Shown here piece after piece: positions 2,170 to 52,700 of a stretch of DNA of 64,000 nucleotides. Where the stretch lies: assembly GCF_036588685.1 (NCBI RefSeq), contig NC_086382.1, positions 48,422,001-48,486,000 on the forward strand, given 5' to 3'. Made by a program: the position numbers and the translations under genes. The notes beneath the pieces were generated by a model, which searched no databases, was not told where the DNA came from, and worked only from the letters and a program-made list of their open reading frames with translations. How positions within the stretch are numbered: the first letter of the stretch is position 1; each line of letters opens with the position of its first letter. This DNA is from Mytilus trossulus (taxonomy: Eukaryota).

Positions 2170-5100
2170 TAATGTGTTTATTGGCAAAGAACTTCATATA
2201 TGCAATATAATTATAGTAAATAAGTTCATAGTAAATCAGCAAAATCGAGACGAGTACATAAAGTTGATATTTTGAATCCTTCTATAAACGTATATTGATA
2301 TTATCAATAATTTTAAAAAGGAATAGAAAATCTAAATCTAAGGTAGCATGGATTGGGTAGATATTTTTATTATATGAGAGTTAGCTTATAAAATCATTCT
2401 ATTAGTAGGAGCCAGGGGTTCCAGCAGGTGTACGCTCTTTGCAATGGTTTATTTTTATAAAATATTATTTTTTCAATGAACAAATTTTCTTTAAGGTATT
2501 TTTTTAAGGCTACACTATTTACTTGTCCACATTGCATTTTTGTTTTGTATATATAATATTTGGTTAATAGTATTATGAGATTTCTTATGTAGTTTTTTTC
2601 TGTTTTTTCTAATATCCCAAATAAGACAATATCAAAATTAAGTGGTAGTTCAATTTGGACTTTTGCAAATATCCATTTATTAAGTTCTTCCCAAACATCA
2701 AAAACTTTTGGACATATCCAGAATATGTGTTCAATAGTTTCTATTGAGTCTGAACAGAAAGTGCATTTATTGTTTTGTGAGATTTTAATTTTGTAGAGAA
2801 ATTTATTTGTTCCCAAAATTCTGTGATTAATCCTGTATTGGAGCCACTGTAATTTTGAGTTTTTAGTAATGTAAAATGGAAGTCTGTATATTTTATTCCA
2901 AATAATATTATGTCTATTTAGGATTAAAGACCACATTTCCTGTGATGTGATATTGGTTATTTTTTTATTTAAAACATTATACATGTCTTTTGATCCTTTT
3001 GTAGATTTCATAAATATAGAAATAGTAGTTGGTATAATTGGCCCATAAGGCTTCATTAGCTGATTATTTTTAATATTAAGACTTTTCATATAGAAATAAA
3101 CAGCTGACATTACTCCTTGAAATATAAGGAAGTTGGTATCAACATCATATGTTTTTTTAAATTCCTGCCAATTCATTAAATGTCCATCATTATCAATTAA
3201 ATCATTTATTAGCCAGACACCCTTTTCAGTCCATTTTTTATACAGAGGGGTTTGATTACCAATTTTAATTTCTTTATTATTCCAAAGATTAGATGCGATA
3301 AAATCATATTCGTTCTTAATAGCTACTTTGGTTTGTAGTTCAGTCCAAGCATTAAAAACCTCCAGCCAAAAACGATTTTTAACTTGTGTTCTTGGACCTA
3401 CCAAGAATAATTCATTTAATTCAATTTTTTCAGTACAAGTTAGTAATTTACAATAGTTATTAGTTTGTTTGATTATTCTTCTTATCCAAGTTAGTTTTAA
3501 TCCTTTGATGTATTGTTTTAGATTTAACATGTTAAGTCCACCCAGTTCATATATTTGAGCAATTGTTTCCCTTTTAATTTTGTCTGGTTTACCATCCCAA
3601 ATAAAATCAAATAATTTTTTTATGAATTGATTTAGTAATCCATTATTAAGATTTGGTAAAGTTAAAAATAGGTGATTGAGCTTTGAAATTATAAGACTTT
3701 TAATTATTGTAATTTTTCCAATTGGGGATAAGTATTTGTTAGACCAGCTTTTCATTGTTCTTTCTATCTCTTTAAATTTGGGTTCAAAATTTAGTGTTTC
3801 CATTTCTTGTAAGTCTACTGAATATTTAATACCCAAGAGCGTAAATCTGTTGGAACCCCACTCCAATCCCCACTTTACACACATTGTATCTTGGCTATAT
3901 TTCTTTTTCCCAATCCAGACTACCTTTGTTTTCTCTAAATTCATCTTGAGACCAGACCATTCAGCATATAGTTCTAAAACACAAAGAGATGCATCTAAGG
4001 ATTCTGGTGAACCATCTAAAATAAGTGTGGTGTCATCAGCATATTGTGATATCAAAAATTCAGAGTCTTCAATAGTAATACCTTTTATGTTTTCGTTTTT
4101 CCTAGTAAGTAATATTCCTAAAATTTCTGCACATAACAAGAAAATGTAAGGAGATAAAGGATCCCCTTGTCTGCAACCTCTTTCAATTGTAAAAAAATCT
4201 GATAGAAAATTATTCTGCGTTATTGGTGATTTAGTATTTATAAAAAAAGTTTTAACCCAATGTTTTATGGAATTTCCAAAGTTGAAAAAGTCAAGAACTT
4301 GTTCTATAAAAATCCAGGATATTGTATCAAAAGCTTTTTCGAAGTCAATGAGGAGGAGAATGCCGGGGATATCATTTTCTTCAGTGTAGTGTAGTAAATA
4401 ATATATTAATCTGGTGTTTTCACCAATAAATCTACCAGGTATAAATCCGGTCTGATCATTTTTTATTAAAATTGTTAAAACTGACTTTATCCTTTCTGCA
4501 ATGCAACTTGATGCTAATTTATATATATTATTTAAAAGACTGATTGGCCGCCAATTCTTCATGTATTGTTTTGGTTTGTCACCTTTTGGAATGCAAGTTA
4601 TAATTCCTTGTTTTTGGGTAATAGACATTTCCCCTTGATTATAGCCATATTTGATTGATCTATGTATGAATTTACCTATATCAATCCAAAAAAATTTAAG
4701 AAATTCATTTGTATATCCATCTGATCCAGGGCTTTTCTCATTTTTCATTCTTTTAATTGCATCAGTCAATTCTATAAATGATATTTCCCCTTCTAACGAC
4801 TCTTTCATATTTTCAGATAGTTTTGGTATATCTTTATGGGGTAAAGCATTATTCAGATTAATAGATTTTATAGTCTCATTTTTGGAATATAGATTTTTGT
4901 AATAATTTTTGGCTTCGTTTAGAATTTGTTTTTGGTTTTCAATTATATTTCCTGATTGATCAATTAATTTAGGAATTGTTTTATTGACATAATTTTTTGT
5001 CTCTAAATTTATGAAAAACTTTGACGGTTTCTCTCCTTCTTCTACCCATTGTGTTTTTGACCTTATGTATTGACCCCTCATTTTATTTTGTCTGATAATT

Positions 5101-6151
5101 CTAAGATCCGTTTTCTTTTTTTCTATCTGTTCCAAAATTTCATCTGTTTGGGTTATTTCTTCCAACTTGTTTATATCTTCAGCTAGCAAATGTTCTAATT
5201 TATTTGTTTTTTTCTTTTTAAATGAAGCATACGATATTGTTTTCCCCCTTATTTCAGTTAACAATGTTTCTAAAAATAATTGATCACTAATTGTGAACTC
5301 AATTTCACTAGAGTCTACTAAGTTTAGGTTTTCTCGATTATATACAAGAGAAGCATATTGTTCTTTAGTTTTATTTATTACCTCTTTTACAATATGGATA
5401 TAATCTGGATCATATAAAAGAGAATTGTTAAATTTCCATAAACCCCTCCCAATTCTGAAGTTATTAAGTTTTATTTGTAAAATAATAGGCGAGTGATCTG
5501 ATCTATAACTATTTTGTATCTTTAAGTCATGTACATTTGGATAAAAGCTCTGTGAAACTAAAAAAAAATCTAGTCTGGCCTGTTTTATAGGGTTTGGTTT
5601 CCTCCAAGTATATCTTTTACTTTCTGGATATAGTTCTCTAAATGGATCAGTTAAGTTGTAAATTTCCTTTATATCTAACACTTTTTCCTTAGCTTTTGGA
5701 TTATTTATATTCAAGTAATTAAAAGTATCAAGGTCTTGATTTTGCACTAAGTTATAATCTCCTGTCACAATGACAGTATGATTATCAAATTCTTCAATTA
5801 TTTCGCTAACTTTATCATAAAAATCAGGACTGTCACTATTTGGACCATATAATGTAATTAAAGTGATATTGTTATCTTCAATTTTAATATTCAATCCTAA
5901 TAGATTTCCATTTTGATCTTTTTTGCTTTGTAAAATCTTATATTCAAAATTATTATTAAATAAAATGGCCACTCCTCTTTGATTTGAAGAAAAGGAACTA
6001 AAGACGCATTCTCCACCCCATTGATTCTTAACAAATTGTTCATCTTTTTCAGAAAAGTGTGTATCTTGAAGACAATACATGCTACAATCTTTTGCTCTTA
6101 GATAGTCTAAAACATCTCTTCGCTTTTCAATTGAATTAAGTCCTTGGCAGT
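2140..6151 (-). mobile_element. L1/Tx1-clade non-LTR retrotransposon, 5'-truncated at the start of ORF2
   Basis: Poly(T) run 2138-2168 on + (poly(A) tail), AATAAA at 2182-2177, 13-bp TSD TAACTGAGTTCTT at 2127-2139 and 6152-6164, and an intact EN-RT ORF. There is no ORF1. Confidence 0.93.
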
Positions 6152-6224
6152 TAACTGAGTTCTTACCTTTTATATTCCTTCGCGTTATTTTAGACAATCC
6201 AAGTCGATCGTGGTCAAACGGCAT
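2394..6224 (-). CDS. LINE ORF2p: APE endonuclease, reverse transcriptase and C-terminal Cys/His motif
   Basis: EN motifs SVNCQGL, LQDTH, LYGPN, GDYN, RLDFF, SDH. RT motifs KSPGSDG, WRPISLL, DFEKAFD, GCRQGDPLSP, QYADD. C-terminal CTFC..ETIEHIFWIC. The first ~24 codons come from target DNA (ATG at 6224). Confidence 0.92.
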   Translation of the reverse strand: MPFDHDRLGLSKITRRNIKGKNSVNCQGLNSIEKRRDVLDYLRAKDCSMYCLQDTHFSEKDEQFVKNQWGGECVFSSFSSNQRGVAILFNNNFEYKILQSKKDQNGNLLGLNIKIEDNNITLITLYGPNSDSPDFYDKVSEIIEEFDNHTVIVTGDYNLVQNQDLDTFNYLNINNPKAKEKVLDIKEIYNLTDPFRELYPESKRYTWRKPNPIKQARLDFFLVSQSFYPNVHDLKIQNSYRSDHSPIILQIKLNNFRIGRGLWKFNNSLLYDPDYIHIVKEVINKTKEQYASLVYNRENLNLVDSSEIEFTISDQLFLETLLTEIRGKTISYASFKKKKTNKLEHLLAEDINKLEEITQTDEILEQIEKKKTDLRIIRQNKMRGQYIRSKTQWVEEGEKPSKFFINLETKNYVNKTIPKLIDQSGNIIENQKQILNEAKNYYKNLYSKNETIKSINLNNALPHKDIPKLSENMKESLEGEISFIELTDAIKRMKNEKSPGSDGYTNEFLKFFWIDIGKFIHRSIKYGYNQGEMSITQKQGIITCIPKGDKPKQYMKNWRPISLLNNIYKLASSCIAERIKSVLTILIKNDQTGFIPGRFIGENTRLIYYLLHYTEENDIPGILLLIDFEKAFDTISWIFIEQVLDFFNFGNSIKHWVKTFFINTKSPITQNNFLSDFFTIERGCRQGDPLSPYIFLLCAEILGILLTRKNENIKGITIEDSEFLISQYADDTTLILDGSPESLDASLCVLELYAEWSGLKMNLEKTKVVWIGKKKYSQDTMCVKWGLEWGSNRFTLLGIKYSVDLQEMETLNFEPKFKEIERTMKSWSNKYLSPIGKITIIKSLIISKLNHLFLTLPNLNNGLLNQFIKKLFDFIWDGKPDKIKRETIAQIYELGGLNMLNLKQYIKGLKLTWIRRIIKQTNNYCKLLTCTEKIELNELFLVGPRTQVKNRFWLEVFNAWTELQTKVAIKNEYDFIASNLWNNKEIKIGNQTPLYKKWTEKGVWLINDLIDNDGHLMNWQEFKKTYDVDTNFLIFQGVMSAVYFYMKSLNIKNNQLMKPYGPIIPTTISIFMKSTKGSKDMYNVLNKKITNITSQEMWSLILNRHNIIWNKIYRLPFYITKNSKLQWLQYRINHRILGTNKFLYKIKISQNNKCTFCSDSIETIEHIFWICPKVFDVWEELNKWIFAKVQIELPLNFDIVLFGILEKTEKNYIRNLIILLTKYYIYKTKMQCGQVNSVALKKYLKENLFIEKIIFYKNKPLQRAYTCWNPWLLLIE

Positions 6225-6236
6225 CAAAACGACTTA

Positions 6237-42449: not shown

Positions 42450-43073
42450 ATATACTAACTTTAGTCCTGGTATCTATGATGAGTTTATTCCTAACACAGC
42501 TGAGATGTGGAATTCTTCCTTTGAGACTAGAGACGGGTAGATATAGCGGCGAGCAACCAAATGAACGCTTATGTAAGTTTTGTAACAGAAATTCCATGGA
42601 GGATGAGTGTCACTTTATTCTCCACTGCTCCTTATATAATGACTTGAGAGAATCTACTTTTAATGAGATATTTTCTGCGATGAACTACTAAATATGACAA
42701 ACGATGAAAAAATTATCTTTTTGATGACAAACTATCCTAGAAAGCTGGCTAAGTATACAGTGAAAGCGTTCCGGCATAGACGTGAAGTGTTATATAATAC
42801 ATGAACAGTTTGATAAACAGTATATTGCAATTCGAGTTGACAGTATTGAATGTATTTGACTGTAATATGAAAATGTAAAAATGTTACTTCATGGGCATTT
42901 GAATATTTCCAGTTTCTTCATTTTTACAATAAATTTATTATGCACTCAACTGGACATTTATTAAATCGATTTTCTAATAACTTCATTTTTTTTTTATATA
43001 AGTTTGAATTTGTCATTATTAATTAATTATGCATTTAACTTGACATTTACTAAATCGATCTTCTATATATAAT

Positions 43074-43332
43074 AATTAGAAATTTTTAATTGATGTTTAT
43101 ATTAATGTTTCATGTTCTGTCCGACTCGGCTTCTGTTAAAATCATTATTTATTTAGGTGGACGATAAACATTTTATTACTAGATTTATTATGTCTGTGGT
43201 AGAGACGGCAATGTTTTCTTAACCGTCTCATGACTTGGTGCACGTGTTAAATTTTCAATCTTTGTCAGGTTTATTCAGTCAGTTGCATTGATAAGATAGT
43301 AACAGTATAGAAGTGCAAACAATTCAAATCAA
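43074..43332 (+). repeat. Split direct repeat A1
   Basis: Appears identical to 48413-48671. Confidence 0.92.
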
Positions 43333-43379
43333 TATTACTAGTATTTGGTTATTTCATAACTTTTAACTACTTCTTAAAA

Positions 43380-44561
43380 ATGCCGCCAGTTCGTAAAAAG
43401 CGTGTTTCCAGTAAGAAAAGTAAGAAAAGTGACACACCAGTTATACAGAATTCTAATACAGAATTGACACTTGACGAAGTTAAAGGAAAACTAAGAAAGC
43501 AAGGCATCAGGGCTCCATCAACTTTTACAAAAGAGCAGTTATTGGAACTATTAAATGAGAATTCAGGACAGGATAATACAGTTATGCCCGAAATTCCAGC
43601 ATTAACTCAACTTACCACCAGTTTAAACAACATGGAGCAAACTGTTCAAAATCAAGGAACTTTAATTCAGTCGCTATTAGTTAGAGAATCAAATATCATT
43701 AGTCAACCTGCATTCGTGAGTGATATAAATAATGGAGTACATCATGATACAGGATCTTATCACACTACCAAGGTTTCCTCAGGCATGTTTCCGCATGTTC
43801 AAGCAGTGGCACCGAACGTTCGGAAGCAGATTTTAGAAGGCAAGTACATTAATCTGGCTACCCTTCTTAACAATCAAGAAAACGTACAAGATTACAAAAC
43901 CGTTGATGAATCTGACGGGTTCGTATTGTTAATCAAACATCGCGATCCCCGCCTTCAAAGAAACTTGTCTATACAAGAGTTTCTAGAAGCTTTTAATATT
44001 TACAAAAATATTATCTGTGAAAAGCAAGACCGACGAATCGAATTCGATATGTATATTCAAGATATCATTGATATCTCTGCAAGATATAAAGGTCCCGTTT
44101 TCTACGAGTATCACAAGGCTTTCGCAAATAAGGTAGCTGCTATCAAACTGACCCATGGTAAAGTTGTAGATTGGTCCATCAGAGACGAAAAACTCTATTC
44201 ATCCATCACAAGTGGACAAATAATTAAAGAATGTGAAACATGCGGTAGTCTTGGGCATCTCACAGCTGTTTGTCAAACGTTACTAAGCTTTGGTCAATCG
44301 AATAATCGACCGAAACCAACTTATAATCAAACTCATTTTCAGAAATCACAAGTTGGGAGTAACGATCGTGTTGATTCCAATACAGATATACGAGGACGCC
44401 CTGTTCTTTTCTTTCGTGGTCGGGAAGTGTGTAACAATTTCTTATCAGGAAAATGTTTCAAGGTGACAAAATGTTCATTCGCCCATGTTAATACTAGATC
44501 ATCTACTGGTGCTACTCCGAACAATGGGCCGTCACAAGAACAAGCGCAGGCCAAGAATTGA
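43380..44561 (+). CDS. Ngaro gag-like protein (393 aa)
   Basis: N-terminal basic patch and SAP/HeH-like helix pair (LTLDEVKGKLRKQGI...TKEQLLELL), RKQILEGKYINLATLL, FYEYHKAF, CCHC knuckle CETCGSLGHLTAVC and CCCH finger CNNFLSGKCFKVTKCSFAH. Confidence 0.88.
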   Translation: MPPVRKKRVSSKKSKKSDTPVIQNSNTELTLDEVKGKLRKQGIRAPSTFTKEQLLELLNENSGQDNTVMPEIPALTQLTTSLNNMEQTVQNQGTLIQSLLVRESNIISQPAFVSDINNGVHHDTGSYHTTKVSSGMFPHVQAVAPNVRKQILEGKYINLATLLNNQENVQDYKTVDESDGFVLLIKHRDPRLQRNLSIQEFLEAFNIYKNIICEKQDRRIEFDMYIQDIIDISARYKGPVFYEYHKAFANKVAAIKLTHGKVVDWSIRDEKLYSSITSGQIIKECETCGSLGHLTAVCQTLLSFGQSNNRPKPTYNQTHFQKSQVGSNDRVDSNTDIRGRPVLFFRGREVCNNFLSGKCFKVTKCSFAHVNTRSSTGATPNNGPSQEQAQAKN

Positions 44562-46169
44562 CTAGTGTCTACGCCTATTGATATCGATCAACTTGAATTT
44601 GAACTTACACATTATCCAGATAAAAATTTTGTTTTTAATTTAATTAATGGACTTCGATATGGTTTTGACACAGGCATAAACGTACTACCAAGTAAATCTT
44701 TGGAATGTAAGAATTTATTGTCTACCAAGAAATTTCCCGATGATGTTACGAAACTGGTAGATGACGAACTTAGTAAAGGATACCTTATTGGACCATTTAC
44801 AAAACCTCCGTTTGATACTTATAGAATTAGTCCGATAGGTATTGTTGAAGGAAAATATTCAAAAAAGAAAAGATTAATTCTAGACCTCTCGGCTCCTCAC
44901 AACAATGATGAGCATCACAGCATCAACGATTTGATAAATAAGGAAGACTATTCATTAACCTATGTAAGAATTGACGACGCTATAAATATAATTAAGTCAT
45001 TAGGAATTAAAAGTCAATTATGTAAGTGTGACGTAACCGATGCATTCAAATTAATACCTGTACATAATTCTTTATGGCGATTTTATGGATTAAAATGGAA
45101 TGACATGTACTATTTTTATACTCGTTTAGCATTTGGTTGCCGTTCAAGTCCCAAGATATTCGATACATTATCAGTGGCAATATGTTGGATCTTACAACAT
45201 AATTACGGTTTGCGGCACGTGTTACATTTGTTAGACGATTTTCTCCTGATTAACAATCCTTACGTAGATGCTACAAGGAATATGAACACAATGTTATATG
45301 TATTTAATAGTTTAAAGATTCCTCTCAGCGCTCATAAAACAGTTGGTCCATCTACTTCATTAGAATATCTCGGCATAATTCTCGATTCAATGCATATGAT
45401 TGCTAAATTACCTGATGAGAAGCTTGTTAGAATTAAGGATATTTTATACAGCTATCTTAATAGACGTTCATGTACTAAGCGTGAAATGTTAAGTTTATTG
45501 GGTCATCTCAATTATGCATGTAAAGTAATTATACCAGGGAGATCGTTTGTGTCGTATTTATTGACATTAGCACACTCCGTTAAAGAACTTTATCATCACG
45601 TTACAATTACAAAGGGATGTAGAGATGACATGGCAATGTGGTTTAAATTCCTAAGTCAGTGGAATGGTATATCATTTTTTATCAGCGATAACGTTATTAA
45701 TGCGTCCGATTTTCATTTATTTACGGATGCTTCATCAACAATCGGATACGGAGGTTATTTTAGGAAAAGGTGGTTTCAAGGCAGTTGGCCCGACGATTTT
45801 ATTCGGCCCGATGAGGAGTCTTTCTCAATGGCTTACTTAGAATTGTATCCGATTGTTATATCTGCTATTTTATGGGGGCATGAATGGTCTACTAAACGCA
45901 TTCTTTTTCATTGTGATAATATGTCTAGTGTGTACATTATTAATAAGGGTCGTTCAAAGTGTAACGTAATTATGAATCTTGTTCGCCGTTTAACTTGGTG
46001 TGCGGCTAAATTTAATTTTGTTGTACATGCTGTACATGTACCAGGGAAAGAAAATAACATAGCAGATGCTCTTTCTCGTTACCAGATGAAGCGGTTTCGA
46101 CAATTGGCTCCAGAAGCTTCGCCAAATCCATGCACCTGCCCTCCTCATTCCGAAATTGTGTGGAGTTAG
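44562..46169 (+). CDS. Ngaro pol: reverse transcriptase and RNase H (in frame with gag after the UGA)
   Basis: ISPIGIV, RLILDLS, CDVTDAF, LAFGCRSSP, HLLDDF, YLGI; RNase H FTDAS, LELYP, CDN, NNIADALSR. No ATG until about residue 180. Confidence 0.92.
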   Translation, partial: LVSTPIDIDQLEFELTHYPDKNFVFNLINGLRYGFDTGINVLPSKSLECKNLLSTKKFPDDVTKLVDDELSKGYLIGPFTKPPFDTYRISPIGIVEGKYSKKKRLILDLSAPHNNDEHHSINDLINKEDYSLTYVRIDDAINIIKSLGIKSQLCKCDVTDAFKLIPVHNSLWRFYGLKWNDMYYFYTRLAFGCRSSPKIFDTLSVAICWILQHNYGLRHVLHLLDDFLLINNPYVDATRNMNTMLYVFNSLKIPLSAHKTVGPSTSLEYLGIILDSMHMIAKLPDEKLVRIKDILYSYLNRRSCTKREMLSLLGHLNYACKVIIPGRSFVSYLLTLAHSVKELYHHVTITKGCRDDMAMWFKFLSQWNGISFFISDNVINASDFHLFTDASSTIGYGGYFRKRWFQGSWPDDFIRPDEESFSMAYLELYPIVISAILWGHEWSTKRILFHCDNMSSVYIINKGRSKCNVIMNLVRRLTWCAAKFNFVVHAVHVPGKENNIADALSRYQMKRFRQLAPEASPNPCTCPPHSEIVWS

Positions 46170-47200
46170 ACCAAGCAGTCGACAGCTTATGGAATAAAAG
46201 TATCAACGTGAATACCCGCAATGTTTATTCAACAGGATATAAATGTTTTATTCAATTTTGTGGCAATCATATCACTGGATTCAACTCAAGGACTTTCAAT
46301 ATGTCTAAAATTTCGGAAGATTTATTGATCTATTTCGTGGCCCATTGCCAATCAGTGTTAAAACTGAAATATTCAACAATCAAATTATATCTCGCTGGAG
46401 TTCGTTTTCATGGAGTTAATTTTGATAATGTGAACCCACTTTGTGATAAATTTGGTCATACATACCAACGCTTGCAAAATGTGTTAAATGGAGTTAAAAA
46501 ATCTGAGAGTAAGCCATTACGACAAAAGTTACCAATAACGTTTAAAATTTTACAGGAAATAGTAACTTGTTTGCAATGTGGATTTTTCAATCATGATTAT
46601 ATGGATTTAACATTTCAAACAGCGTGTGTTCTGGCATTTTATGGTTTTCTGAGATGCAATGAGTTTACATGTAGAACTGTGTTTGATCCAGATTCAAATT
46701 TATGCGTTTCTGACATAAATTTCGTTTCAGAATGCGAAGTAACTGTTAATTTAAAAGCTACAAAGACAGATATATTCCGACAAGGTATTATAATTTCCTT
46801 GTTCAAGATAGAGGGCGTCGTTTGTCCGTATAAATTGCTATCCCAGCTGATGAGTGTAAGATTAAACCTAAACGCAAAGCAGAATGATTCGTTTCTCGTT
46901 GAAGAAACCGGAAAACCACTTTCCCGGAACTATTTTATAAGCAAGCTGAAAACAATACTCATAGCATTAGGATATAGTGACAAGGATTATAGCGGACATC
47001 CTTTTCGATCAGGTGCGGCCACAAGTGCTAGTTCTCAAGGTATTGAGGACAGCATGATACAAACACTGGGACGTTGGAAATCAGATTGTTTTAAACGTTA
47101 CATTAGAACTTCCAATTGGATATTAAATCCGCGCTGGAAAAGATTAAATGACAAGATACAATGCCGAAAACGTTTTTTACCATCGGTTATAACTTTGTAA
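46130..47200 (+). CDS. Ngaro tyrosine recombinase
   Basis: FYGFLRCNEF (R), KATKTD (K), SGHPFRSGAA (HxxR), LGRWKS (W) and FKRYIR (Y). Overlaps the pol 3' end by 40 nt. The C-terminus is probably frameshifted. Confidence 0.92.
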   Translation: MHLPSSFRNCVELDQAVDSLWNKSINVNTRNVYSTGYKCFIQFCGNHITGFNSRTFNMSKISEDLLIYFVAHCQSVLKLKYSTIKLYLAGVRFHGVNFDNVNPLCDKFGHTYQRLQNVLNGVKKSESKPLRQKLPITFKILQEIVTCLQCGFFNHDYMDLTFQTACVLAFYGFLRCNEFTCRTVFDPDSNLCVSDINFVSECEVTVNLKATKTDIFRQGIIISLFKIEGVVCPYKLLSQLMSVRLNLNAKQNDSFLVEETGKPLSRNYFISKLKTILIALGYSDKDYSGHPFRSGAATSASSQGIEDSMIQTLGRWKSDCFKRYIRTSNWILNPRWKRLNDKIQCRKRFLPSVITL

Positions 47201-47457
47201 TTTGTCCTCCATCCTAGCCTTGTGTCTTTTCTTCTCACGTTGATCTCAATATTGTGGTTAAGGATTTTTATATTGACATTAATTTTTCTCTAGATCAACT
47301 TTAATTTTAACAAGACACAAGGCTTCATCAGGCACAACATCTTCAATCTTTTGGGGTTACTCAATATGCAACTTGGGCAGGCAACATAACGTTACATATT
47401 TCGTTTTGGGCTATGATATTTTATTTTGGCCAAATATAATATCGTTTCCCCAAAACA

Positions 47458-48414
47458 TTTCTGAGTAGTTAGGGTGCCTACGTGCCTTAACGAGGAATAG
47501 TGTCATCTTGATTGCTCAACAGCTCTATTTCACGTCGGTCTATGCCCACAAAGATTTACTCTTATGCGGTACCACGTGGAAAATCAAGTAAGGCTATACC
47601 GCTCGGGAACGGCTTGCTAAAGTACTCTGAGACAAGTAGACTGGTAGTCGTACACACACGTGTATGCAAATACCCCTATGGTGACGCATTTCTGTCAAAG
47701 ATATGTGGCTAGCTCAGGCACAGTATTTTAGCGGCAAATTATCCTTAATTATCTGAGAACACACTATCATTTTATGTACATACTGTGTGTTTTGTGTCAA
47801 CTGCAGGTAGCATGTAATTTGTTTTGTTCTTGATTTACAATATGACAGAACTGAGTGAATTACATGATACTAGAGAAAAAATATCCTCAAGCATTCACAC
47901 AGTGTGCCGCGCACACTGCTCGGATAGTTAAGTATAATGTTGGCGTCAGTTAGTTTACATTCATCGCTTTTTATTCACTGACGCCAAGGAAGTTTTCTGT
48001 AACATAACGTGTTGCCCTTAAGCCCAAATATTTGTATAATAAAAATAATTATTTTATTATGTTTTATATTCATTCAGTACTCAAACAATCAGACTGGGTA
48101 TCTTGAAATACTTCCTGCTGGACGTTTAAGGCTTTATATCAACAATAACTACTTTCGTAATTATGGTATATTGTCTGTGATCGTTCTTATAGACGGTCAT
48201 TAAAAGCTATCAATTATCTGCGGTCAAGGTTAATTTATATGTATTTGTACATATCTCTAATCATTGTTCACGCCTGTAATTCTCTTATCAAAGGTCTATT
48301 AAGGTCAACGCATTGAGGTTTTATTAGTAAATTGGCTTTGGTCTGCTGTGTCGGTATTAACTTTGGATCATACGCTTGATGTGTATTTATTATGTTTGAA
48401 ACATGTTGTATAAA
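47458..48414 (+). repeat. Split direct repeat B1
   Basis: Near-identical to 48776-49732 (offset 1318). Confidence 0.92.
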
Positions 48415-48671
48415 TTAGAAATTTTTAATTGATGTTTATATTAATGTTTCATGTTCTGTCCGACTCGGCTTCTGTTAAAATCATTATTTATTTAGGTGGA
48501 CGATAAACATTTTATTACTAGATTTATTATGTCTGTGGTAGAGACGGCAATGTTTTCTTAACCGTCTCATGACTTGGTGCACGTGTTAAATTTTCAATCT
48601 TTGTCAGGTTTATTCAGTCAGTTGCATTGATAAGATAGTAACAGTATAGAAGTGCAAACAATTCAAATCAA
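48413..48671 (+). repeat. Split direct repeat A2
   Basis: Copy of A1, directly abutting B1. Confidence 0.92.
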
Positions 48672-48775
48672 CCCTCCAGCCGCCCCAACACCGCCGATTA
48701 TTATGAAGATGTTGTGCCTTTATGGTTCACGTTATGTTACTATAATAAATGATCAGGCCAGACATTTATGAACAT

Positions 48776-49732
48776 TTTCTGAGTAGTTAGGGTGCCTACG
48801 TGCCTTAACGAGGAATAGTCTCATCTTGATTGCTCAACAGCTCTATTTCACGTCGGTCTATGCCCACAAAGATTTACTCTTATGCGGTACCACGTGGAAA
48901 ATCAAGTAAGGCTATACCGCTCGGGAACGGCTTGCTAAAGTACTCTGAGACAAGTAGACTGGTAGTCGTACACACACGTGTATGCAAATACCCCTATGGT
49001 GACGCATTTCTGTCAAAGATATGTGAATAGCTCAGGCACAGTATTTTAGCGGCAAATTATCCTTAATTATCTGAGAACACACTATCATTTTATGTACATA
49101 CTGTGTGTTTTGTGTCAACTGCAGGTAGCATGTAATTTGTTTTGTTCTTGATTTACAATATGACAGAACTGAGTGAATTACATGATACTAGAGAAAAAAT
49201 ATCCTCAAGCATTCACACAGTGTGCCGCGCACACTGCTCGGATAGTTAAGTATAATGTTGGCGTCAGTTAGTTTACATTCATCGCTTTTTATTCACTGAC
49301 GCCAATGAAGTTTTCTGTAACATAACGTGTTGCCCTTAAGCCCAAATATTTGTATAATAAAAATAATTATTTTATTATGTTTTATATTCTTTCAGTACTC
49401 AAACAATCAGACTGGGTATCTTGAAATACTTCCTGCTGGACGTTTAAGGCTTTATATCAACAATAACTACTTTCGTAATTATGGTATATTGTCTGTGATC
49501 GTTCTTATAGACGGTCATTAAAAGCTATCAATTATCTGCGGTCAAGGTTAATTTATATGTATTTGTACATATCTCTAATCATTGTTCACGCCTGTAATTC
49601 TCTTATCAAAGGTCTATTAAGGTCAACGCATTGAGGTTTTATTAGTTAATTGGCTTTGGTCTGCTGTGTCGGTATTAACTTTGGATCATACGCTTGATGT
49701 GTATTTATTATGTTTGAAACATGTTGTATAAA
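48776..49732 (+). repeat. Split direct repeat B2
   Basis: Copy of B1; terminal. Confidence 0.92.
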
Positions 49733-52700
49733 CTTCATTTTTTATATAAGTTTGAATTTTTCATTATTAATTAATTATTTTGAAATTTAGCTTAATCTTA
49801 CTTTTCATTATTTTGTTTGAAATCCGTGATAAAAGAATTACGTTTTGTTATTTGAAAGTGACTTATAGACTCAATGGGTCGGGTGTATTTTATTGTGTAT
49901 GTAATATATTTGTACTTCATTGAGATGTGATTACACATGTCACTATAATAAACATTTACTTACTTACTTACTTTCCTACTATTTATGAGTTTGACTGTCC
50001 CTCTGGTTTCCTTCGTCCCTCTTTCATTATTTGTTAAAACTTTCGATATCAGTAGATACGTATAACTTTCCCTATGATAAGTTATGTCTGCATCGGAATA
50101 CACTTTACATAGATACCGTGATTAAATTTATATACGACAGACGCGTGTTTTCGTCGAGAAAGACTGACGCTCGAATAACAAAAGTGTAAATGGCCAAATT
50201 TAGACTTAAAGTTGAAGAGCATTGATTGTACCATACATATCCTCCGAAATAGGCCAATTGACTTAATCTGTAAAAGAGGTATTATATTAGAACTATTTTG
50301 TTTAGAAAATAACAAATGCAATTCTTTAGAATAATATCAATACGTGGTTTGATTGGTTACAATTTTGTTTTCTTATTAGATAGAAAACTATGGAAAATAC
50401 GCAACATATACCTCAAAACATTTTTTTTTAAATAACATGAATTTCGGTTATAGTCTAATAATTGAATACCTTTAGATGATTTTAAAGCACACTTTAATTA
50501 TCCTTCAGCGAGACTGATATTGAGAATATACTTAGTTTCACTAATGTGACATGCCATGGAATCATACTCCGTATGACAAAGAAAACTATATTTGAAGAGA
50601 TAAAAAAGAAAATCAAAAATTAGTTGGTTTCTCTAATCAATTGAGAATTTGAAGAACATTGAATAAAAATATACAAAAACTTGTCTATCTATAATTTGGG
50701 ATAAAAAAAATCCGTAACTCGCTTAATTCGGACGATTAATTCTGCTGATCTTCGATGACTGTTTTAACGCTTTGGATGAAATCGGACACAGGGAGGGATT
50801 TAATTATTCGATTTAGAAAAACCGTAGTATTTCGGAGGACCTTGATGTTCATGATCACTAAATTTTTCGAATATGACGTTGAACAGAACATGCATATTGG
50901 GTATCAAGGTTATTTCGAGTCGAACTTCAAAAGTTACGAAGATTTGCACAGACCTGGTGGTTGTTAACGCTAATCATAGATACCAGGTTTATAAACTTGA
51001 GCGCCAGACACGAATTTCATCTATATTCAATTGATTTGTGGCGATCTAATCATAGCAATTGCCAGAAACCTGTACAAAATGTGTTATTTGATTTCTAAAA
51101 TTTTTACTACCAAAATTAATACTATTCACAAAATGAATTATTCATATTGATTTGAGTCAAATAAAATACTCTTTTGAGACTGTCGCTTTTTTTAATTAAT
51201 GTGATTTTTTCTAATCATTTATAATTAGAAAGTAAACATATTTTTGTGGTTTTTCAAATCAATTGTCATCTATAATTAGATATTACACAGCTTTTTTTAT
51301 GTGGTTTTATATTTACTTTATCTATTATACATTTTCGCGTTATTAAAACAAAAGAATGTTCATATATTTTGTAAAAATTAGCATTTTAGTAATTTATAAT
51401 CATCTTTTAATGTAAAAGTCAAATTATATAGTACATTGTCCTTGCCATTGGATATGTATTTAAAAAAAACATATTTACAAAATATGTTTTGCTGATATTT
51501 ATGTAAAAGGATATTAGATATTGCAAATATCACAAATATATGTGCAAGTACAAAAATGGAAAAAAAATATAAACGATTTCCTGTATTCTCTAGAATAAAA
51601 ATAATTAAATAAAAAAAAGATAAAATGTAATCCAATTGTATGAGTGTTACCTGTAGTATGAAACATCCAGCAGAGATTTGTTAAATGATGATGTTTTACA
51701 TTTCCAATAGTTATGCTTAATTGAACTCATTTGCAATTTTTTAGAACAATCCGGAAGGAATCTTAAGCATTTTAATTTGTGAATGTTAGACGTTAAATTT
51801 GACTTGTTATTGTAAAAGCAAAAGTATATGTTAATAGCACTAAATGATTTTAAAATACTAACAAATAGGCAAACATTAAAAGTTTGTTAAATTGTACCCG
51901 GACCTTTTAGCACAAACAGATAGGAACAGTTTTATCTAAATCTTCCCTTCAAAATTGCATCCCAAATTCCATAAGTCCTAGTGTAATATATTTCTTCTAC
52001 GCGTCTAACATTACTTTTTCAATACTTTCTGAGAGCTAGGGTCGTTTAATTATACTTTATCTATACTTTATCAAATAAGTGAATACTATATACAGTATTG
52101 ACAATCAATTACAAATAAATGTTTTAATCGTATCAATTACATAAACATTTGATTTTTGGCGTCTTTATCAAGTTATCTATCAACTACAATCTGGTTTTTT
52201 TTCGTGTTTGCTAGATTCATTTGTATGTTTCTTTGAGTTTGAAGGCAGTTAGTGTGGGAAATTTGTGAATTGTGTTTGCACAGATTTGGCTACTGAACCA
52301 CACTTATTGCAACATAAACCTTTTATTTCTGTTTAAGTTGCCCACCAAATTTTGTCATTATAACGACATGTGAATAATTTTACAAATAAATACACTATCT
52401 GGATTGAATATGTTTAGTTTGTCGAAATGCAAGAATACCAACCTCTAATTCAAAAAGAGGAAGCCATAAAAAAAAAACCCTGACCAAACCAAACAATATC
52501 AACGAACGGAATGTAAAAAAACCCATCTTATTCCCTACTCGAAGCAGGCATTTTCAAATTTTGTTTTAGTTGTGAAGCTAGTTTAACCTCCAACTTGTAG
52601 GCCAGTTGCTTATGGTTGCGTTATATCGACAAAAAATGGGTGAAAAACCGAACAGACATAAGAGGTTTAAATGACAGTCACTTGGATCCAGCCGCCAAGA

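Follow-up and report, generated by a model that had tools for sequence, protein, structure and literature searches.

We asked whether, in a retrotransposon with split direct repeats, base pairing between the spacer that separates the A2 and B2 repeats and the region upstream of B1 takes part in copying the element. A preliminary description of the window (here, the whole stretch of 64,000 nt that was analyzed) had noted three complementary matches between these regions and had likened them to DIRS1 elements' internal complementary region (ICR). It proposed a long-range RNA duplex that brings the two B starts together, possibly for self-priming or template jumping.

The element occupies positions 43074 to 49732 and is a young Ngaro-type tyrosine-recombinase retrotransposon with the order A1-ORFs-B1-A2-spacer-B2, all of its listed features lying on the plus strand; the genome holds about 25 near-identical copies. 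The A1 repeat (43074 to 43332; 259 nt) has 100% identity to A2 (48413 to 48671). A gag-like ORF (43380 to 44561, with its ATG at 43380) has no match in Pfam and takes its label from its position. The ORF for reverse transcriptase (RT; 44562 to 46169; 535 amino acids) has RVT_1 as its sole Pfam match (E = 5.7e-9), with a putative RNase H part and no Pfam match to a methyltransferase or methylase domain, and it overlaps the tyrosine recombinase (YR) ORF (46058 to 47200; Phage_integrase, E = 4.6e-6). Downstream lie B1 (47454 to 48412; exactly identical to B2 from 47458), A2, a C-tract (48672 to 48686) whose first base directly follows A2, and B2 (48771 to 49732; 962 nt; 99.3% identity to B1), with 99 nt of spacer between A2 and B2. 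These features fit the definition of Ngaro in passages of two papers (PMC4157794, PMC9210276): split direct repeats A1-B1-A2-B2, of which the internal pair lies downstream of YR; ORFs for RT and tyrosine recombinase on one strand; and absence of the methyltransferase domain, a trait that separates Ngaro from PAT and DIRS1. The YR tree that accompanies this assignment holds sequences from this genome alone, without named Ngaro or PAT references, and the element may alternatively be a PAT element that has lost its methylase, a loss for which a passage of PMC4157794 provides a precedent.

Several other features of the window were recorded. In this copy, the YR frame diverges from that of sibling copies toward the C-terminus (47000 to 47200, with a frameshift near 47113). 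The element is flanked by a 41-nt repeat (42990 to 43030 and 49738 to 49778), which seems to be an 89-nt tandem unit already present at the target and not a target-site duplication. An intact LINE ORF of 1279 amino acids with endonuclease, RT, and zf-RVT domains lies at 2394 to 6233 on the minus strand.

All three matches between the spacer and the pre-B1 region are exact reverse complements, as described, yet they differ in what they contribute to a predicted fold of positions 47200 to 48780. The 16-base match, which joins the P arm (47330 to 47345) to the S arm (48704 to 48719), is paired with a predicted probability of 0.98. The 6-base match (TTGGGG at 47351 to 47356 with CCCCAA at 48683 to 48688) reaches 0.71 and competes with a local 8-bp pairing of 47349-56 with 47448-55. 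The 10-base match (47383 to 47392 with 48729 to 48738) is as exact as the others, but its proposed membership of the duplex was not borne out: its predicted probability is 0.00, and it crosses the 16-bp helix in pseudoknot order. In B lies a perfect 13-bp complement of its spacer half (47999 to 48011 and 49317 to 49329). According to the folding model, then, the 10-base match is incidental, and its spacer segment pairs better with a segment inside B, here called Z. Considering chance, a 16-mer inverted match anywhere in the non-redundant element arises in 5% of 300 shuffles, and a complement of at least 14 bases between the pre-B1 region and the spacer arises in 0 of 5000 shuffles. Inverted 10-mers (60 seen and 39 expected in the element) and 6-mers (2087 seen and 2122 expected) are common, and the two shorter matches therefore carry no weight on their own.

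The preliminary description had held that a lack of conservation or compensation in sister families would count against the duplex. We fetched loci around recombinase matches and sorted them into about 20 groups, 13 of which belong to the window's clade and have a complete B1-A2-spacer-B2 tail; scoring was limited to these 13 families. Eight of the 13 retain the duplex in letters of their own: helices of 14 to 20 bp are clear in these eight, each with its own sequence, absent in four, and doubtful in one. The eight families are spread over three sub-clades, at a YR identity of 37 to 64%. Cognate pairs of pre-B1 region and spacer scored higher than non-cognate pairs, with 0 of 200,000 permutations reaching the observed value in a test of 15 families and 0 of 50,000 in a repeat with B1-anchored windows in 13 families. 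In the 15-family test the G anchors of two families (L058 and L057) were probably misplaced, and the repeat used other anchors. These permutation values overstate independence because the families are related and all come from one genome. The helix signal is absent from a hydrolase-bearing sister clade of nine families (p = 0.39), and a metagenome scan for further elements yielded three loci, none with 3' repeats. Across families, the S arm begins 17 to 33 nt past the A2 end and the P arm ends 5 to 55 nt upstream of a conserved TGGGG. Departures from Watson-Crick pairing in the helices comprise seven G-U pairs on the plus strand versus three on the other strand, and predicted P:S pairing is 0.83 to 0.99 in all seven families folded with the spacer. 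On this comparative evidence, the 16-base match is real, and selection has maintained it in a portion of one Ngaro clade; its function is inferred.

The helix is one part of a larger predicted fold. A T-run followed by GGGG (47349 to 47356), which occurs downstream of YR in nearly all families, pairs either locally with 47448 to 47455 or with the CCCC of the spacer; most families of the window's clade have the local partner with matching flanks. Next comes a segment M (47373 to 47397), for which the preliminary description had suggested an alternative pairing inside B. This pairing, with Z1 at 47998 to 48028, was recovered at a predicted probability of 0.83 to 0.84, and the partner inside B is conserved across families. 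M can alternatively form a local hairpin (47362 to 47402), and its competing local fold is closed by TTGGGG:CCCCAA with matching flanks; a switch is thus possible, although nested folding does not reveal one. A conserved TTTTGG(G)C motif with an AT-rich hairpin follows at 47404 to 47443, and its loop might pair back in a possible pseudoknot, as judged by eye. In the spacer, segment M' (48728 to 48740) is a 13-bp complement of Z, with Z2 in B2 (49316 to 49346) as its nested partner and Z1 as its crossing partner; in the minimum-energy fold, all 13 bases of M' are paired with Z2. The best sites for M and M' in B overlap in nine of 14 families when a fixed window is used, bases left bulged by M are often covered by M', and M' may in part be a decayed copy of M. 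Both pairings are family-specific (1 of 200,000 permutations for spacer-Z and 0 of 200,000 for M-B).

In minimum-energy folds that reach into B2, P:S forms in six of six families, M':Z2 in six of six, and M:Z1 in five of six. The predicted architecture is a nested hub made up of the P:S helix, a B1 domain (M:Z1), and a twin B2 domain (M':Z2). Each helix is more stable on the plus than on the minus strand (5:1 for P:S, 9:1 for M:Z, and 9:2 for M':Z). The proposal that the duplex unites the two B starts survives in an indirect form. B2 would be drawn in by M':Z2, but the S arm itself is not fixed to B2: its position tracks the A2 end rather than the B2 start, which in two families is 820 to 890 nt distant. 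Two families with a B2 start more than 800 nt from the S arm are among the six folded. In the window, AATAAA stands about 10 nt or less downstream of Z1. Across families, AATAAA occurs within 65 nt downstream of Z in nine of 13, compared with 4% elsewhere in B, which suggests that the RNA ends just past Z.

The edges of the repeats are sharp. The C-tract begins at the first base past A2 in 23 of 23 families, and A1/A2 identity ends no more than 2 nt from the C-tract's first C in 21 of 21 families, and exactly there in 18. At the other side, B1/B2 identity begins no more than 3 nt from the second G in TGG in 23 of 25 families; the exceptions are L058, where it begins 4 to 5 nt off, and the window's family, where it begins about 50 nt past TGG. 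Differences between B1 and B2 that are common to several copies cluster at the B start, with one exception; the window's family has one such site, and the L001 family has three or four, located in the initial 24 nt. At B position 876, the same deep B1/B2 difference is found in two separate copies (window 48329 and L032).

Deleted copies point to the A edge. Four of 16 loci in the window's family carry deletions with breaks 1 to 7 nt from the A edge and 1 to 6 nt of overlap, joined to four different internal sites, and 56 loci from two other families yielded one further A-edge deletion. All five break 0 to 7 nt from the A edge, and the internal site to which the break is joined differs from copy to copy. 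At least five loci carry deletions whose left breakpoint lies elsewhere. In the L042 family, 15 apparent jumps were artefacts (14 from a reference offset) and were excluded from the deletion counts. Together, the sharp A and B edges and the A-edge deletions suggest that B1-A2 is copied anew, as one strong-stop unit, in every cycle and that there is a DNA end at the A edge. The P:S helix is unnecessary for these boundaries, since it is missing in the nine sister-clade families, which keep both sharp edges. Among the matches listed (40 A-end and 40 B-start), none is a spacer-less A-to-B joint, and a genome-wide search with a C-tract pattern returned about 92,000 matches per strand, equal to the control level. 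Solo A-spacer-B units were also observed (L071, L072, and L073) and fit recombination between A1 and A2; in L104, L151, L158, and L159, a solo or truncated A copy stops at the A edge or a few bases away. Extra tandem B-A-spacer units are present in L033, L092, and L095, with three spacers and a 1318-nt period in L033, which suggests repeated template jumps or unequal crossing over.

The comparison with an ICR failed. The ends of the element are complementary to neither arm, and according to excerpts of PMC7192593 the DIRS-1 ICR works after first-strand synthesis. Inverted terminal repeats are absent, the element ends being direct repeats, and no region is complementary to both ends; the best complements of the spacer lie before B1 and inside B. 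Other candidates were rejected as well. Priming by tRNA-CCA at B2 was set aside because TGG is lost at B2 in several families, and TTGGGG as a polypurine-tract primer because B identity begins at least 24 nt later, with fixed B1/B2 differences between. An HDV-like ribozyme, judged by eye, has too few bases separating the pseudoknot stems. No Rfam family matched at gathering score in 14 loci (best E = 0.83 within the window), and an ARAGORN search returned no tRNA.

Our best explanation, which we hold tentatively and at somewhat less than even confidence, is that a predicted fold at the RNA 3' end, with P:S as its hub helix, gathers the sites at which RT would begin, halt, and jump. The P:S helix would assemble only on RNA that extends through A2 into the spacer; given that it needs this read-through, it would mark full-length genomes. 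The hub would bring together the C-tract, the B1-start TGG, and B2. RNA of the element itself, close to that TGG, would prime the minus strand at the edge between A2 and the C-tract; this strand would copy A2 and B1 as a single strong-stop unit and halt at TGG. It would then jump to the tethered B2 and continue, in a second pass that likely uses a second RNA, via the spacer, A2, B1, and the ORFs. The circle to be inserted by the recombinase would arise by closure at the A edge, with B1-A2 acting like one internal LTR. Self-priming and template jumping are here inferred. Against this explanation stand the clade families in which the helix is absent (four of 13) or doubtful (one), the nine sister-clade families, the B edge in the window's own family about 50 nt past TGG, and the silence of the sequence data on the direction in which B1-A2 is copied. 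No complement of the whole C-tract is found among the inverted matches in the element. In eight RNA sequencing runs of low depth, several of them possibly DNA, we saw no mapped ends, joints, tails, or poly(A) ends. In a small-RNA library, antisense, piRNA-like small RNAs about 30 nt long cover the ORFs (window 43400 to 46500).

The same B1-A2 unit could be copied in the opposite direction, a reading that we consider unlikely, albeit the main rival. Here the minus strand would start from the hub-folded RNA 3' end, and the plus strand would run from TGG to a stop at a G-quadruplex formed by the C-tract complement, with a splint or jump closing the circle. A single RNA suffices for this scheme, the overlaps at the deletion junctions suit an invading plus-sense 3' end, and a 3'-hairpin primer has been proposed for DIRS-1 in a passage of PMC7192593. 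The C-tract has at least four CC runs in 23 of 23 families; however, shuffled tracts yield four runs 69% of the time. The bases preceding TGG are U-rich rather than a purine tract, the B-start fold favors the RNA strand, which copying would already have removed, and DIRS-1 cDNA is mostly single-stranded. A retron-like form of priming from the element's own RNA is improbable, in our estimate: the conserved G of the B1-start UGG (by its 2'-OH or after a cut) would pair with the first CC of the C-tract and prime there. If so, one event would fix both repeat boundaries, and the long-range helix would license that event on full-length RNA alone.

Other readings take the helix out of priming. It could be real and serve RNA handling, through the choice of poly(A) site in B2 over B1, protection of the tail, dimerization, or packaging, with M' perhaps stripping Z1 from M. 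The sharp boundaries of families that lack the helix and the AATAAA downstream of Z in nine of 13 families suit this reading, as do the two exclusive folds of M, the swapped state being lower in energy in 12 of 13 families. That comparison selects the best window in the spacer and takes no account of what pseudoknots cost, though, and M:Z1 is retained in nested folds. The S arm, moreover, keeps its position relative to the A2 end, and the helix cannot suppress the B1 poly(A) signal during transcription, as it forms only once that signal has been passed. We judge a role in RNA handling to be rather unlikely. Chance, or a by-product without function such as an old inverted duplication from template switching, could draw on the 5% of shuffled elements with a 16-mer somewhere and on the five of 13 families that lack a clear helix. 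The complementarity that differing sequences keep at one and the same position in three sub-clades largely refutes it, and the non-Watson-Crick changes lean to plus-strand G-U (seven vs three), leaving this explanation very improbable.

The comparison across families makes predictions at the level of single bases: DNA should end where A2 meets the C-tract, synthesis should stop or start at the B1 TGG, and the RNA should end just past Z2. The three predicted helices can be broken and rescued, which would make the priming step of Ngaro testable. The split repeats are recast as one internal LTR-like unit, and the C-tract and TGG boundary motifs offer a simple aid for annotating Ngaro ends. No primer is known for DIRS-1, according to a passage of PMC7192593, and none is reported for Ngaro in the literature searched. 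The literature searched gave no prior account of these motifs; an earlier remark, for example in the founding Ngaro papers by Goodwin and Poulter, is possible.

Compared with Ngaro elements, of the order DIRS, in excerpts of four papers (PMC9210276, PMC4157794, PMC3783388, and PMC8547959), the window's element is alike in its A1-ORFs-B1-A2-B2 order, its RT and YR on the same strand, and its lack of a methyltransferase match; neither spacer pairing nor a C-tract, a TGG boundary, or a primer is mentioned in those excerpts. The window's clade has no hydrolase ORF, whereas the sister clade carries a GDSL/SGNH hydrolase ORF. In that clade (L085, L086, L087, L090, L091, L092, L095, L096, and L100), conserved TGCTG, a pyrimidine run, and TTTCAG lie 45 to 75 nt past the A2 end; this motif resembles a 3' splice site and may serve a short transcript from the A2 promoter. 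L085, L087, and L090 also have their own fold about 100 nt before B1, two-state-looking by eye, with a G-rich strand, a hairpin, TGGC, and an upstream competing strand. In passages of PMC7192593, the DIRS-1 ICR is likewise an internal sequence that restores ends absent from the transcript, a role that the B1-A2 junction would take here, but the ICR is complementary to both termini, whereas the window's arms match each other.

Priming by the element's own RNA, as proposed here, is described for Tf1/Tj1 in excerpts of PMC4600332, where the 5' end of the RNA and the primer-binding site (PBS) are fully complementary; no comparable complement of the C-tract was found in our element. A title cited there refers to an RNA duplex cut by RNase H. 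In the retron msr-msd (excerpts of PMC7736814), inverted repeats bracket the copied region, with a conserved G on the 5' side and copying heading back toward it. Retrons, however, have a bacterial RT class, a short ncRNA, and an experimentally shown 2'-5' branch, and the G in our element is not at the base of the helix but tens of bases inward; inverted repeats around the template are present in only eight of the 13 families of the window's clade. Ty1 differs in being an LTR element with a tRNA-Met primer at its PBS and a pairing that links both RNA ends (excerpts of PMC3592414); a tRNA-type PBS is not evident here. Its CYC5/CYC3 pairing is nevertheless the closest to ours in its working, as a long-range duplex that adjoins the start site and that the same excerpts report to be necessary for reverse transcription.
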